64,000 nucleotides of DNA, from the IMG/VR virus record IMGVR_UViG_2795385758_000004, positions 22,292-86,291 of that record; one strand, 5' to 3'. This DNA is from a virus (taxonomy: Duplodnaviria > Heunggongvirae > Uroviricota > Caudoviricetes). The translations under genes were made by a program, and so were the position numbers. This document shows, piece after piece, positions 1-50,214 of this stretch (its first letter is position 1; the number at the start of each line of letters is the position of its first letter). The notes under the pieces were generated by a model that made no database searches, was not told the DNA's origin, and was given only the letters and a program-made list of their open reading frames with translations.

Positions 1-1
1 G

Positions 2-397
2 CTGCGCCCGGCGCTGGTTGAACTCAAGGGCCATGGCGGCATCGTCGATGGGGAGTTGTCATGGGCTGAGCTGACGGTGCACCACACCGCCGATGCCAAC
101 GGCGACGCGTTCGAGGTCGTCGATGCCAGCGCCGATGATGTCACCAAGACGTTCACCATTGATTCTGGTGTCACGGAGTACACCGTGACCGCCGGCGCCG
201 ACACCACGGCCGCTATCACCACCAAGACCGCGACGGCGCTCCGCAATGCCCTGCGCGCGCTCGCGAGCGTGCAGGGGCTGCCCAGCCCCGGCGTGACCGT
301 GACCGGGCCCTCGGGAGGCCCGTTGGTGGCGGTGTTCACAGCCCCGATCACCCCGATCTCTGCGGCCGGCACCGGCGGCACCGTCACCGTCTCGTAG
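2..397 (+). CDS. C-terminal part of a virion structural protein, probably major tail subunit (5' end outside window)
   Basis: Reading frame is open from base 2, so the first M at 56 is internal. Thr/Ala/Val-rich Ig-like C-terminus. Sits immediately upstream of the tail chaperone pair, as major tail genes do in siphoviruses. Confidence 0.4.
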   Translation: MRPALVELKGHGGIVDGELSWAELTVHHTADANGDAFEVVDASADDVTKTFTIDSGVTEYTVTAGADTTAAITTKTATALRNALRALASVQGLPSPGVTVTGPSGGPLVAVFTAPITPISAAGTGGTVTVS

Positions 398-497
398 TCG
401 AAAAGCACTCGCCCCGGACGCGAACCGACTCCCGCGCCCGGGGCGGGGCACCACCTCAGCGAGTCGGCCCCTTTCCCCTGTAGCCAAGGAGTCGAAC

Positions 498-845
498 ATG
501 ACCGCACCACGTAAGAACATTCCCGCCGATGCCCCCAAACCGCAGGACCGCAAAGCCAAGAAGAGCGCGGCGGCACGCAAGGCCGAGGCAGAAGGATTCG
601 CCACCATCGAGCAGTGCGGCGTGACACTGCGATTCCCGACCAAGAACCTCCCCATGAAGGCCGTCCTGCGCTATCAGGGCCTCAACGATGATCTGACGCC
701 CATCGAGCCCAAGCAGATGATTCCGACGATGGGCCTACGGGAGCTGCTGGGCGCCGAACAGTGGTCGGCATTCCTGGCAAAGAACCCCACCATCGAAGAT
801 TTCGAGCAGGCCAGCGACAAGATAGGTGAAGTGCTGGGAAACTAG
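498..845 (+). CDS. tail assembly chaperone (G)
   Basis: 115 aa ORF directly upstream of the tape measure gene. Ends in the slippery heptamer GGGAAAC at 836-842 followed by TAG. Confidence 0.75.
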   Translation: MTAPRKNIPADAPKPQDRKAKKSAAARKAEAEGFATIEQCGVTLRFPTKNLPMKAVLRYQGLNDDLTPIEPKQMIPTMGLRELLGAEQWSAFLAKNPTIEDFEQASDKIGEVLGN

Positions 846-1225
846 TTAGCCTCTTTCGCCTGCTCGCCGAGCATGGCGATGAGATAGAGGCCGACCTAGC
901 GCAGTACTACAACGGACTCGAACTGACCGATTTGTACCGCGGCACCCTCTCTGTCCGCCGTCTGGGCGTGCTGATTCGTCAGCTGCCGCTGCGATCGCGG
1001 TTGGTGACCGCGCTCAACGGCGGTCGCCCCAAATGGACAACCATCGAGCATCTGCTCGCCGACATCTGGGCGGTGCTGGTCAAGCTGCTGGGCGACCCGG
1101 ACAAGGTGCCCGAGAACATCGACCATCCGGTACGTGCCGAGATGGCGGCAAATGAGAAATCCGAGCACAAGCGGGCGCTCAAGGAGCGCTACCTGAAACG
1201 CAAGTCTGACCGGAGACGTTCATGA
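498..1225 (+). CDS. tail assembly chaperone GT fusion via programmed -1 ribosomal frameshift at 836-842
   Basis: The -1 frame is open from GGG AAA (836) through to stop at 1225. The 932..1225 ORF in the track is its distal part. The T segment shares the IEADL...RG.L....L..L..QLP motif with the prophage B T segment. Confidence 0.6.
836..842 (+). promoter_or_regulatory. -1 frameshift slippery heptamer G_GGA_AAC
   Basis: Zero-frame codons are GGA AAC, giving the X_XXY_YYZ pattern. The -1 frame continues open across the G stop. Confidence 0.6.
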
Positions 1226-1250
1226 AACCTGTTGTGGAGGTGATACATAC

Positions 1251-48476: not shown

Positions 48477-48840
48477 CCGGCAGTGCGGCGCGCTGGCGAT
48501 AGACCTCGGTGATCAGCTTGCGCATCTGCTCGGCCTGCTGGCGCTGCTGCACCAGCACGTTGTTAACCACCACTTCGACGGTCTTGGCGCCGATCTTGAG
48601 CTGTAGCCAGCAGTCGCGGTCGCCGTCCAGTAGAGCGTTGAGCCGGGCGAGGTAGTCGGCGGCGTATCCGGCCTGCTCGATGATGAGCCGTAAGGGGTAG
48701 GGGTCGTCGGGTTGTGACAACTCTTCGATGAGTCGCTGGCCGACGGTCTTCTCGGAGGCCGGTTGCCGACGCGTTGCCCGCTTAGCTGAAGTCTTTGCTG
48801 AGTTAGCGGTGGCCTTTGCCGGTTTCGTGGCTGCTGTCAT
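48439..48840 (-). CDS. terminase small subunit (putative)
   Basis: 133 aa basic/acidic protein immediately upstream of the large terminase. Confidence 0.5.
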   Translation of the reverse strand: MTAATKPAKATANSAKTSAKRATRRQPASEKTVGQRLIEELSQPDDPYPLRLIIEQAGYAADYLARLNALLDGDRDCWLQLKIGAKTVEVVVNNVLVQQRQQAEQMRKLITEVYRQRAALPDDPDDDDVLAGI

Positions 48841-48960
48841 CGCTCACCGCGTTCAAAAAAAACCTGACGGGAGCCTCCGGGGGTCAGGAAGGCCCCCCAC
48901 CTGGATAATTTCAGGGGGAGGGGCTTTGACCTGCGGTTATGGCGCTTTTGGGCGTGTGTA
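48841..48960. other. putative cos / genome terminus region of prophage B
   Basis: Non-coding gap between the small terminase and the HNH / P-loop genes. Contains tcaaaaaaaac and the imperfect palindrome cctgacgggagcctccgggggtcagg. Confidence 0.3.
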
Positions 48961-49000
48961 TCGGTGCTGGTCAGGGGCCTTTCGGCCCATCGGTTGGCGA

Positions 49001-49453
49001 TCACCACGACATCACACCTCCGTCGTGTTTGCTGACAGGGTCGGGATGTTTGCTGTGCGACTGGTCGGCGTACCACCGCTTTGCTGCCTGCGCCATGCGC
49101 CACGGTCGTTCGGCTTTGCATCGGGCCATGACCACGCTCTGACCAGGGTCGATGGTGATGACCTGCGCGCCAGCGGATCGGTAACGCGCGAGCAGGCCCT
49201 CCCCGGGCATGGAGTGGATCAGGTACACATCGCACTGGTCCGCGAACGTCAGCGCCGTATCGATCGCGGCCAGCCGCGCGGCCTTGGTGACCGAGCGGAT
49301 GTGCTGCGGCGGGTCGTGTGGATCTCCACCCGCGGGCGTGAGCACCGAAGCGATGGCGTCGTAGTCGATCGTGATGTCGCCATGCTTGGCGTGCTGTCGT
49401 ACCCATGTGGACTTGCCGGCCGCAGGCGGGCCGGTCACCAGGTAGAGCGTCAC
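49001..49453 (-). CDS. P-loop NTPase (putative nucleotide/polynucleotide kinase)
   Basis: GTG at 49453 overlaps the HNH stop (GTGA). Walker A motif LVTGPPAAGKST. Confidence 0.5.
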   Translation of the reverse strand: MTLYLVTGPPAAGKSTWVRQHAKHGDITIDYDAIASVLTPAGGDPHDPPQHIRSVTKAARLAAIDTALTFADQCDVYLIHSMPGEGLLARYRSAGAQVITIDPGQSVVMARCKAERPWRMAQAAKRWYADQSHSKHPDPVSKHDGGVMSW

Positions 49454-49851
49454 CAGTCCATCGCCAGGTTGTCGGTAGTGATGACGGGCGCGGTGGTGAT
49501 GCCCAGTGACGCAAGGGCACCGGACCATTCGGATGGATGAACGTCGAGCACCGCAGGTCTGTGCGCGTCATGTCTGCCGTCCTGGCGCTGGCTGTTGCAG
49601 ATGCCGTGCAGTAGGCGATCGGCGCGTTGTCCGCCGAATGCCCGAGCCTGACTATGGTCTGCGGCCAGTTGCTTGCGGTCCCAGTTGCGCTCCAGCAAGG
49701 GCGCTTTGAACATCGGTAGGCCACACCACCAGCACAGGGTGCCGTCTACGTGACGGCGCAACAGCCCTTCGGCTTGCTGTTGGTGTTTCCAGCCCAGACC
49801 GCGATCGGTGGTGCTGGCCTTACGGCCGGGCCTCGGCGACATAGGGCTCAT
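49450..49851 (-). CDS. HNH endonuclease
   Basis: WWCGLPMF ... ADHSQARAFGG ... LHGICNSQR, an HNH-type motif. Located at the genome end next to the terminase, as in cos phages. Confidence 0.6.
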   Translation of the reverse strand: MSPMSPRPGRKASTTDRGLGWKHQQQAEGLLRRHVDGTLCWWCGLPMFKAPLLERNWDRKQLAADHSQARAFGGQRADRLLHGICNSQRQDGRHDAHRPAVLDVHPSEWSGALASLGITTAPVITTDNLAMDW

Positions 49852-50214
49852 CCATGATCAGCGCATCCGACGTAAACCCCTGGCGGCCAGCGCTTGCATC
49901 GGCCTCGGCGTGCGCTGGTGGTGCAGTAGGCGCTGGCGCGACCTTGACGGGTGCGACGGATGGCTCGCTGCCGTCCTGCTCCACATCCAGCGTCCAGCCG
50001 TTGGCGCGGGTAGTGATGGTCATCGTGGTATCCCCAATGGGCTGGCCCAGCTCGGCCAGCGTGCCCGCCTGCGCGAGAGTGACCATCACGGCCAGGCCCC
50101 AACCCTGCCCGCCGGATTGGCGTTTAAGGTCGGGGATATCCGGCGGCGTGGAACGCCACTTACCCGGGTCGGTGTCCATGAGGACCTTGCCGTCGACGGT
50201 GATCTTGATATTGC

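Follow-up and report, generated by a model that had tools for sequence, protein, structure and literature searches.

How do two different temperate phages come to lie head to head, one the mirror image of the other? The question is raised by a stretch of 64,000 nt (positions 22,292 to 86,291 of the IMG/VR virus record IMGVR_UViG_2795385758_000004), which we refer to as the window. Our analysis makes it probable that the window stems from a double lysogen, in which a MabN and a MabC prophage of Mycobacterium abscessus share one attB-13 site in opposite orientations as a result of integration in reversed alignment and of selection acting on the repressors.

Two different prophages flank a palindromic axis

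An earlier note on this DNA had proposed a mirror image about position ~18930, with the gene order tail-lysis-toxin-int on one side and int-toxin-lysis-tail on the other. The mirror image is real: the axis of gene-order symmetry lies at 18,930/18,931, which is the centre of a perfect palindrome, and the gene order agrees with Pfam matches and with the GenBank annotations of the matching records. The arrangement had been placed at 1-50,000, which proves too short, as the right prophage continues to 64,000 and further. The features are as follows.

1-18,929, + strand: right 19 kb of a cluster MabN prophage (match to prophiGD62-3, MW584177)
12,216-14,653, + strand: left lysis cassette with lysin A, lysin B and two small membrane proteins (record annotation)
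13,797-14,075: copy 1 of a 279-bp exact inverted repeat within lysB, the longest exact match between the arms
14,734-16,917, - strand: left polymorphic toxin cassette with membrane protein, immunity protein, 440-aa toxin and WXG100 protein (record annotation)
17,909-18,808, - strand: left tyrosine integrase, 299 aa, arm-less type (Pfam)
18,825-18,929, - strand: 3' remnant of the left repressor (E, 33 codons and stop), severed by integration
18,912-18,949: junction J, consisting of the left P arm, a central AC (18,930-18,931) and the reverse-complemented right P arm
18,932-64,000, - strand: inverted cluster MabC prophage from its int end to the RecT gene, the repressor end lying beyond the window
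18,932-19,036, + strand: 3' remnant of the right repressor (C-terminus match to viral forms)
19,057-19,947, + strand: right (MabC) tyrosine integrase, 296 aa, arm-less type (Pfam)
20,402-23,167, + strand: right toxin cassette with two WXG100 proteins, 550-aa polymorphic toxin and immunity protein (record annotation)
23,753-26,255, - strand: right lysis cassette with 83-aa protein, holin, lysin B and lysin A (record annotation)
24,405-24,683: copy 2 of the 279-bp inverted repeat within lysB (exact match to copy 1)

The left arm, which carries a fragment of the major tail protein, tail chaperones, an 837-aa tape measure, minor tail proteins, lysis genes, the toxin cassette and int, is identical to prophiGD62-3 (MW584177, 23,701-42,641) at 18,938 of 18,941 positions. 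All three mismatches fall into the last 12 nt, within J, and window positions 1-18,929 are free of mismatches. By nucleotide identity and gene order the left arm belongs to cluster MabN, to which prophiGD62-3 has been assigned (PMC8092301). Its LysA has a Pfam match to Peptidase_M15_4, and the cutinase match of LysB (E 0.0076) falls short of Pfam's cut-off. The right arm shares 99.4% identity with prophiCCUG48898T-1 across 18,920-43,800 (24.9 kb). Its early region is a mosaic (96.0% identity to prophiCCUG48898T-1 over 81%; 97.4% to prophiGD43A-3 over 91%) that is 92-97% identical to other MabC records, placing it in cluster MabC, and the final 400 nt of the window are part of a RecET block common to this phage and the MabN phage. 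Near the att site both arms contain an ESX-linked polymorphic toxin-immunity cassette, with WXG100 protein, large toxin and immunity gene: WXG100 Pfam matches were found at 16,597-16,917 and 20,402-20,713 and a WXG100_2 match within the 550-aa toxin, while the 440-aa toxin has no Pfam match and is named by the GenBank record only. Pfam and PADLOC scans of a reverse-strand island (51.6-54.3 kb) and of the small cassette genes gave nothing informative.

Inverted DNA similarity between the arms is found at 12,081-14,194 vs 26,390-24,281 (88%), at 7,993-8,718 vs 30,394-29,669 (80%), at 14,395-14,653 vs 24,010-23,753 (71%) and, as a fourth block, in the int genes (~75% at the nucleotide level). The homology is thus limited to lysA-lysB, part of one tail gene and int, plus the RecET block, which lies largely beyond the window. 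The inter-arm protein identities are 92.8% for LysB and 84.7% for LysA (~95% and ~90% had been estimated), 70% for Int and 72% for gp56/gp61. Large minor tail proteins with 70-80% identity were not confirmed: one such protein is 65% identical over 318 aa, and BLASTP between the arms (E<1e-3) gave no match for the other tail proteins, the tape measures, the toxins or the WXG100 proteins. Judged by these comparisons, the tail blocks, which the note had regarded as homologous, are syntenic rather than homologous. The different lengths given for the tape measures (837 vs 1,208 aa) are correct. The holins had been called unrelated, which applies to one pair of small lysis membrane proteins; the other pair is 67% identical. 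Since the arms represent two different phages, they must have been acquired separately, as proposed, yet from different clusters with shared mosaic modules and not from the one lineage that had been suggested.

The prophages are joined P arm to P arm

The palindrome at J has the sequence CTTATACGGTTCATACTC-AC-GAGTATGAACCGTATAAG (18+2+18) and is perfect; scanning the window with the core pattern gave this one site, compared to 0 expected in shuffled sequences. J joins the integrase-proximal att arms directly, i.e. it is made up of two P arms only, with zero host DNA. We also considered a host hairpin carrying one phage per arm, which is ruled out because J holds phage P-arm sequence only. Correctly aligned integrase recombination is unable to produce a joint of P arm with P arm; J, which sits at the exact crossover position, needs a wrong-way integrase reaction. 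A joint of the same type recurs with a different left-hand phage on a 2.46-Mb contig (L008). The single match in an IMG/VR scan for the J pattern (L042) is identical to L008 and thus not independent, and the pattern was not found in species-representative genomes. In that other genome the 92-kb two-phage unit is entered as one provirus in IMG/VR. A lookup of the 84-aa ORF crossing J returned no recorded match.

Both phages use the same near-palindromic attachment site

The GenBank records of both prophages finish with the same core, TACTCGTGAGTAAGAAC. Both integrases normally lie beside the same host gene, and both repressor ends beside the same host genes on the opposite side. Indeed, MabN and MabC have both been assigned to attB-13, MabC phages being reported at attB-12 as well (PMC8092301). 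The two prophages of the window are in one attB-13 site in opposite orientations, not at two sites. This site is located at the start codon of the MAB_3947 homologue. The gene codes for a short-chain dehydrogenase and carries the annotation fatty acyl-CoA reductase. A search of the window detected no tRNA gene, which argues against a tRNA attB. Outside the central GT, attB-13 and the two attP cores are palindromic. Their half-sites form inverted repeats that are almost the same (B, B' and P' read AGTTCTTACTC, P reads GGTTCATACTC), and the asymmetry of the overlap consists of the central GT alone. In other species of Mycobacteroides and Mycobacterium, every match of the attB-type pattern was an empty site.

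Both integrases (296 and 299 aa) lack an arm-binding domain, as their SAM-like domains start at residues 6-11 and their catalytic domains span 122-264 (Pfam); for the left integrase the SAM-like core-binding domain starts at residue 6 and the Phage_integrase domain covers residues 122-258. Among the contexts listed, the left integrase adjoins the MAB_3947 homologue in 10 others, and the right one usually does so; these lookups, like that for an early gene, read the longest contigs, which do not include the contig of the window, and mostly gave normal single lysogens. The right integrase is 100% identical to that of phage phiGD57-1 and 28-31% identical to other mycobacteriophage integrases, some of which we take to belong to phages of clusters G, N and P. 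These clusters are named as users of integration-dependent immunity, and for arm-less integrases the core alone suffices, without a directionality factor (PMC9262239). An integrase of this type could synapse near-palindromic cores backwards.

The reciprocal joint lies upstream of the window

For the far side of the inverted prophage we predicted beforehand a joint of the form GCACAGTTCTTACTC-GT-GAGTAAGAACTCGTTCGG, which makes the MabC repressor end in LTRE instead of LTHE. Exactly this joint, in which the repressor end of the MabC prophage runs into the MAB_3947 homologue, was found 22.9 kb upstream of the window on contig FSMD01000010.1 (L051), the last 64,000 nt of which are, by coordinate arithmetic, the window. 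It is also present in two sister assemblies and, in other datasets, in two other allele backgrounds; another of these loci (L052) belongs to the assembly in which the MabC contig matches the window at 100% identity. LTRE variants exist for 3 of the 3 MabC repressor alleles tested (4, 3 and 1 contigs, compared to 200, 67 and 34 contigs with the normal LTHE). In all retrieved LTRE contexts that extend past the repressor, rep is directly upstream of the MAB_3947 homologue. The rep stop overlaps the start of this gene by 8 nt in the L051 sequence, and the gene calls of the others have the same spacing. A MabN repressor ending in LTRE is absent from the protein collection; among the joints found, the repressor end next to MAB_3947 is of MabC type. 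An IMG/VR scan for the far-joint pattern gave no match.

The search sees GT-centred joints only, because an AC-centred far joint encodes a normal repressor, and the agreement of the joint centres with the heteroduplex model outlined below is therefore partly a matter of ascertainment. The sister assemblies were reached through nonsense and frameshift alleles, and their contigs break at repeats, one of them inside copy 2 of the lysB repeat. One sister assembly (L048) has the MabN left end at a normal attL. Another, GCA_900133405.1, carries both a normal attR (P-GT-B') and the far joint (inverted P'-GT-B'), and a single fixed structure cannot account for both.

Repressor reading frames and the proposed origin

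In both phages the attP core lies within the repressor reading frame. The prophage repressors finish with ...TVLTHE and a stop inside the core, and the full-length repressors run in frame through the core into the remnants at 18,825-18,929 and 18,932-19,036. The left remnant, which the GenBank record labels as part of the repressor, translates as EYEPYKRIGRRASSGHVFRSGKHLTCNNPAVASK followed by a stop and agrees with the C-terminus of the full-length viral form P0003; the right one reads EYEPYKSAFRRASSGHGFRSGKQLTCNKSTRSVS followed by a stop and is identical to the C-termini of the viral forms P0059, P0060 and P0066. At attP-type junctions (L033, L064) the genes for a 129-aa Rep and, next after it, the 296-aa Int share one strand. 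At a normal attL the first host base completes the GAG TAA stop, and the same holds at the inverted joint with B'. The extensions end in ...AVASK and ...RSVS instead of an ssrA-like -AA tag; proteins of MabC and MabN have been described as lacking such tags, other signals being presumed (Dedrick et al. 2021, PMC8092301). As far as sequence organisation can tell, both prophages use integration-dependent immunity, the short prophage form of the repressor being taken to be active and the full-length viral form presumed to be unstable or inactive.

The layout would then be host B side, attL, first prophage, J, inverted second prophage, far joint (inverted P' arm-GT-B') and MAB_3947 homologue. We propose that a superinfecting MabC phage met a lysogen with attB-13 already occupied, and that its arm-less integrase recombined attP with the resident attR in reversed alignment, tolerating a central heterology of 2 nt. 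Such an alignment would be possible because the half-sites are near-identical inverted repeats and only the central GT is asymmetric. Once replicated, the heteroduplex would yield AC at J and GT at the far joint, as observed. A direct tandem would join one repressor in frame to the 33-codon remnant of its neighbour, because the reading frame through the core is common to the two repressors (...TVLTHE), and would result in a full-length, presumably inactive form. The inverted joint would instead restore the TAA stop, because B' also begins with GAGTAA, leaving both repressors truncated; it would also keep the GTG start of MAB_3947, overlapped by the repressor stop codon. Eight hetero-fused repressors, constructed as expected for direct tandems, gave exact matches in the protein collection in 0 of 8 cases, a count that depends on gene calls; the homotypic full-length repressor is present there. 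According to Amarh et al. 2023 (PMC9934374), an in-frame fusion at a tandem junction would make the repressor unstable and the lysogen non-viable. Integration-dependent immunity thus appears to explain why the inverted orientation is the viable one.

Alternative origins

The second prophage might instead derive from a phage with a flipped-centre attP (P-AC-P'), e.g. a hybrid from an earlier double lysogen, that integrated through fully homologous overlaps either beside a resident prophage or into attB, which would automatically place its repressor next to MAB_3947. In the configuration assembled on the contig of the window, the GT of attL, the GT of the far joint and the AC of J on the opposite strand do represent the same centre in one chromosomal orientation; the inverted element therefore has directly oriented homologous flanks and could cleanly excise and re-integrate, and LTRE joints in three allele backgrounds would fit a transmissible variant. 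However, for allele c, the one tested, the collection has no full-length viral repressor with LTRE, the attP junctions seen all have the canonical centre, and an IMG/VR search for lone inverted prophages gave only genuine attP junctions. An initial wrong-way event would still be required to make the phage, and we regard this origin as unlikely.

We give little credence to an assembly artefact, by which prophages from separate places or from a mixed culture were joined inverted at the short att sequence. It is true that the assemblies are seemingly short-read, that the junction is palindromic and that inverted repeats break contigs of sister assemblies. But none of the normal sites (attP, attB, attL, attR) contains the k-mers across J (..CATACTCACGAGTATG..), which therefore cannot be the work of an assembler; moreover, the exact reciprocal joint occurs in the same lineage and in independent projects, J occurs in another genome with a different partner phage, and the three joints together give a closed, consistent chromosome. 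Slightly more improbable still are two prophages at the paralogous sites attB-12 and attB-13, with a wrong-way attR x attR reaction inverting or deleting the ~130 kb between them. MabC is reported at both sites and a P/P joint would likewise result, but both repressor ends would stay at normal attL sites, whereas the MabC one adjoins B' of attB-13 rather than a B-type attL flank, and every retrieved flank comes from the attB-13 neighbourhood. A recent palindromic duplication of one prophage, as the mirror symmetry and the perfectly palindromic centre might suggest, is refuted, in line with the earlier note: beyond ~3 kb at 71-88% identity the arms are unrelated in DNA, the tape measures, toxins and most tail proteins differ, and each arm matches a different prophage cluster (prophiGD62-3, MabN, vs prophiCCUG48898T-1, MabC).

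Possible rearrangements of the double prophage

Starting from a double lysogen formed by reversed integration, the inverted RecET and lysB blocks together with three core sites would later permit flips, co-excision and the excision of hybrid phages. A flip of the segment between the inverted arms is plausible: besides the 279-bp exact inverted repeat in lysB there is the RecET block, which is 95-99% identical between the phages, and the contig of the window traverses RecET in a flipped configuration relative to canonical phage genomes. Judged by their fragmentation the assemblies appear to be short-read, and the inverted RecET copies, which share an identical stretch of ~0.5-0.7 kb, bound the central ~81 kb; because of this identical stretch, short-read assembly cannot fix how the outer ends are arranged with respect to the central segment. 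It is conceivable, though doubtful, that the double prophage is a dynamic, recombinase-driven device, whose core sites and inverted repeats interconvert isomers, with an inversion-controlled induction switch and with flipped-centre hybrid phages. If so, a prophage flip would toggle the repressor between its truncated stable and its full-length unstable form, and hybrid phages with a flipped-centre attP would integrate backwards as their normal mode.

Comparison with known systems

The usual picture of polylysogeny at a single site is a direct tandem; in the present case the in-frame remnants appear to forbid it, and the near-palindromic core offers an escape route by which the second phage is inserted backwards. 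If this is true, the locus would be a natural case of two base pairs alone setting the orientation of an arm-less integrase, and would provide a rule that tells which pairs of phages are able to share a site as lysogens, and with which orientation. It would also be a source of large inverted repeats, giving rise to hybrid phages and toxin-cassette exchange in a clinically important pathogen, and is of relevance for prophage-finding software and for strain typing in phage therapy. In Cre/loxP and FLP/FRT it is likewise the asymmetry of the overlap between inverted half-sites that alone sets orientation, and less asymmetry leads to both alignments; these are, however, not immunity-coupled phage integration systems. 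As two asymmetric central base pairs remain here, the backward reaction should be rare. The integrase of Brujita, small, without arm-binding domain and from a phage with integration-dependent immunity, reportedly uses small core sites in vitro without discriminating between att site types. The likeness is one of type, as the 28-31% identities are to other mycobacteriophage integrases, and in contrast to the in vitro work the window holds a natural genomic product of an apparent promiscuity that includes reversed alignment.

In integration-dependent immunity as described by Broussard et al. 2013 (per PMC9262239, PMC8092301), the repressor gene contains attP and adjoins int, the first host base completes the stop of the truncated repressor, and arm sites are not required (PMC9262239, PMC8092301). 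The prophage pair shares attP in rep, the rep-int adjacency and the host-completed stop, but the classical systems have a tRNA attB and ssrA-like tags, whereas here a 24-bp palindromic attB at a host start codon is used and -AA tags are missing. Backward integration is not described for such systems in the literature searchable here, nor did our literature search find a published description of a head-to-head inverted prophage pair. The gene content of the arms, including the toxin-immunity cassettes, is that of prophiGD62-3, prophiCCUG48898T-1 and phiGD57-1 (Dedrick et al. 2021, PMC8092301); prophiGD62-3 and the MabC records are single prophages with normal attL and attR, in contrast to the fused pair of the window.

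We rate the fused inverted pair as a variant form of the tandem prophage, of which prophiT36-2a/2b at attB-2 of M. abscessus T36/T38/T48 is an example (Amarh et al. 2023, PMC9934374); neither 'inverted' nor 'head-to-head' occurs in the text of that paper (PMC9934374). In both cases two different prophages, one of them MabN-like in T36, both with integration-dependent immunity, occupy one attB, an incoming attP has reacted with a resident att site (as we propose for the window), and viability hinges on whether the repressor remnant at the internal junction is in frame. However, prophiT36-2a/2b is in direct orientation, with a hybrid attR/attL junction, and is viable as its remnant is out of frame, whereas the pair in the window is not a direct tandem of this kind: its remnants are in frame, its prophages are inverted and joined P arm to P arm, and a repressor lies beside the host gene.

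Identity of the two arms

The window has a G+C content of about 64%, and a tRNA search of its 64 kb found no tRNA gene. Positions 1-18,941 match prophage prophiGD62-3 of M. abscessus GD62 (MW584177, 23,701-42,641) at 18,938 of 18,941 bases, with all three mismatches in the last 12 nt of the match. Positions 18,920-43,800 are 99.4% identical to the reverse complement of prophiCCUG48898T-1 (OQ417974), and beyond 43,800, up to ~63,600, the window is a mosaic match to MabC prophages. prophiGD62-3 belongs to cluster MabN and the right-arm family to cluster MabC. Members of both integrate at attB-13, apart from some MabC prophages that use attB-12, and both clusters have integration-dependent immunity, in which attP lies within the repressor gene (Dedrick et al. 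2021, PMC8092301).

The mirror-image gene order described in an earlier note is borne out by the record annotation, BLASTP and Pfam: running inwards, each arm carries the tape measure, minor tail proteins, lysin A, lysin B, small membrane proteins, an opposed toxin cassette and the integrase. The same note spoke of homologous blocks, but the sequence likeness between the arms is far more limited. At the DNA level it amounts to three inverted blocks (71-88%) and the int genes (~75%). Protein identities are 93% for LysB, 85% for LysA, 70% for Int, 67-72% for two small proteins and 65% for one minor tail protein, the last across 318 residues; the tape measures, remaining tail proteins, toxins and WXG100 proteins gave no arm-versus-arm match (BLASTP, E<1e-3). 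The arms are far from near-identical at the nucleotide level, and the view that they are not a recent duplication holds. The longest exact inverted repeat between them, 279 bp in lysB (13797-14075 and 24405-24683), is part of a 2.1-kb region (88% identity) and points to a recent exchange or gene conversion between the prophages. A contig of a sister assembly terminates within this repeat.

Further features of the right arm are the following:

27032-27235 (-): homologue of prophiCCUG48898T-1 gene 59 (151 aa, unknown function), located between the tail and lysis genes and reduced by a W68* nonsense codon to a 67-aa ORF; the public collection has this allele in 4 contigs only, and it serves as a lineage marker
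51632-54306 (+): small gene island of lower G+C (~0.60), transcribed opposite to the early genes around it in the inverted MabC prophage; Pfam and PADLOC scans gave no matches except one HTH_23 domain, and the island is possibly a moron or defence cargo
63255-63566 (-): YfdP-like early gene, frameshifted (103 aa versus 113 aa in other MabC prophages); since 6 contigs, Illumina assemblies among them, carry the allele, the frameshift is real and no sequencing error

The central junction

Within the window the two GenBank records overlap by ~22 nt and share the terminal core TACTCGTGAGTAAGAAC. Positions 18,912-18,949 (junction J) read CTTATACGGTTCATACTC-AC-GAGTATGAACCGTATAAG, i.e. the P arm (a phage half-site of attP) of the left phage, two bases, and the identical P arm of the right phage reverse-complemented. 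J is thus a perfect 18+2+18 palindrome containing no host DNA, and its flanks are diverged mirror images, namely two 33-codon repressor remnants followed by the two int genes. Normal single lysogens have ...CATACTC-GT-GAGTAAGAACTCGTTCGG, the start of the MAB_3947 homologue, after either integrase, and ...GGCATACAGTTCT-TACTCGTGAGTAAGAAC before the repressor end. From these flanks it follows that attB-13 is ACAGTTCTTACTC-GT-GAGTAAGAACTCG, an 11-bp perfect inverted repeat around GT; attP is CGGTTCATACTC-GT-GAGTAAGAACTG. When their sites are correctly aligned, tyrosine recombinases always join a left half-site to a right half-site. Judged by this standard mechanism, a P-arm/P-arm joint such as J should therefore require reversed synapsis.

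The integrases (296 and 299 aa) have a core-binding domain that starts at residues 6-11 (Pfam), and hence no arm-binding domain; that of the MabC prophage is identical to phiGD57-1 Int. Both integrases are 28-31% identical to integrases of other mycobacteriophages, some of which we take to be cluster G, N and P phages. These clusters use integration-dependent immunity, and in such systems the core alone suffices and there is no directionality factor (review PMC9262239). Gene 30 of prophiGD62-3 (MW584177 13066-14205, outside the window; locus L065, 7567-8706; ~379 aa) is nonetheless annotated 'excise', which is probably a naming issue, yet relevant to directionality.

In M. chelonae, M. franklinii and other Mycobacteroides/Mycobacterium (loci L056-L062) the empty attB palindrome AGTTCTTACTC-GT-GAGTAAGAACT is exactly conserved, with diverged flanks; no exact match was found in the M. 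abscessus species representative. The palindrome covers the GTG start and first codons of a short-chain dehydrogenase gene, and the phages may be exploiting a host regulatory element here, either an operator or a translational signal.

The reciprocal joint

If an incoming MabC attP reacted once, in reversed alignment, with the resident attR, the reciprocal product would be a far joint made up of an inverted P' arm, the centre and the host half-site B'. Since B' begins with GAGTAA, as does the reverse complement of the other host half-site, B, the TAA stop of the repressor would be regenerated at this joint; with a GT centre, the repressor would end in LTRE rather than LTHE, and MAB_3947 would retain its GTG start. 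By exact look-up in the protein collection, LTRE versions exist for all three MabC repressor alleles tested (4, 3 and 1 contigs, with 200, 67 and 34 contigs for the normal LTHE versions), while the LTRE version of the MabN repressor is absent from it. All retrieved LTRE contexts that reach past the repressor have cro and the antirepressor upstream and the MAB_3947 homologue directly after. The far joint reads ...GCACAGTTCTTACTC-GT-GAGTAAGAACTCGTTCGG, and the repressor stop and MAB_3947 start overlap by 8 nt (sequence read in L051). It was found for LTRE allele c in three Sanger assemblies, for allele b in GCA_030330665.1 and one Logan run, and for allele a in another Logan run, where the recombination module differs. 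Read in one chromosomal orientation, J has an AC centre and the far joint a GT centre, as a daughter chromosome would show if it derived from the heteroduplex of a single reversed exchange; the search was sensitive to GT-centred far joints only. The inverted layout accounts for roughly 2% of MabC prophage occurrences by repressor counts, and for 2 of the 24 contigs read for the MabC integrase.

Very probably, the window is the terminal 64 kb of contig FSMD01000010.1 (L051; GCA_900138995.1; 158,155 bp), the first 5,602 nt of which are 100% identical to prophiGD62-3 11,101-5,500: extrapolation from there places prophiGD62-3 23,701 (window 1) at 94,155 and window 64,000 at 158,154 of the contig, and the far joint with the host gene 22.9 kb left of the window. 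The same far joint is present in the sister assembly GCA_900134725.1 (L052), of which a contig is 100% identical to window 24,603-64,000, extends ~0.9 kb beyond the window end and breaks in the lysB and RecET repeats. In a further sister assembly, GCA_900133405.1, the MabN left end is at a normal attL (L048). Logan hits for these isolates include ERR351971. The three joints (attL, J and far joint) close into one consistent chromosome.

MabN and MabC phages have a RecE/RecT block in common (95-99% identity), and ~0.5-0.7 kb of it are identical in both copies in the window's lineage. In the window's contig, this block leads from the MabC-type left end (rep, cro, antirepressor, RecE) into DNA identical to prophiGD62-3. 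The assembled sequence thus makes the inverted element a hybrid and turns the central ~81 kb around with respect to the canonical genomes. Either homologous recombination really flipped this segment, an event in principle foreseen by the earlier note, or the short-read assembly took an arbitrary path. The three core sites of the flipped form have the same centre orientation, and the inverted element could then excise without any mismatch. Besides its attL, GCA_900133405.1 (L036, L048, L053) contains both the normal P-GT-B' attR of the MabC right end, on a 195-kb contig that crosses lysB unbroken, and the far joint, on a 4.4-kb contig with a dead end 95 nt into B'. These contigs suggest a mixed population, in which the double lysogen would coexist with a derivative that lost one (hybrid) prophage by that excision.

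A proposed reason for the inversion

Both repressors read the core in the same frame (...TVLTHE), and their two remnants, 33 codons each, are identical at 21 of 33 positions by manual count. In a direct tandem, one repressor would therefore be fused in frame with the remnant from the other phage, which would recreate the full-length viral form of the repressor; the inverted layout leaves both repressors truncated, and we infer that this explains the inversion. In-frame fusion at a tandem junction has been argued to give an unstable repressor and a non-viable lysogen (Amarh et al. 2023, PMC9934374). None of eight constructed hetero-fused repressors has an exact match in the protein collection, in which the homotypic full-length repressor is present. 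Loci L033 (GCA_900130905.1, 2893-4193) and L064 (GCA_900136445.1, 10001-11301) show an attP-type junction within large chromosomal contigs, with a full-length 129-aa repressor and Int directly after; either two MabC prophages lie there in direct tandem, or the assembly has incorporated circular phage DNA. A second attR comes abruptly after the early genes in L033.

Recurrence and comparison with known tandems

A 2.46-Mb contig of GCA_900136365.1 has the same MabC integrase facing another integrase (304 aa), whose prophage carries a different toxin; the joint reads ...GCGGTTCATACTC-AC-GAGTATGAACCG... The left-hand phage (L008, 1-9875) is a mosaic of which the phage collection has no complete counterpart, and its 304-aa Int has no close DNA match. 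Its Tox-REase-5 type toxin cassette is 95.6% identical to that of MabC prophages and illustrates cassette exchange between the two partners' families. A 91.8-kb IMG/VR provirus with J has the same sequence as L008 and thus provides no independent evidence for the junction.

The prophages, their toxin cassettes, attB-13 and integration-dependent immunity have already been published (PMC8092301, PMC9934374, PMC9262239). In those parts of the M. abscessus prophage literature and of the wider literature that were accessible to our searches, we found no description of inverted, core-to-core double prophages. The only tandem described in M. abscessus consists of direct tandem prophages at attB-2, which is viable as its remnant is out of frame (Amarh et al. 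2023, PMC9934374), whereas the remnants here are in frame.
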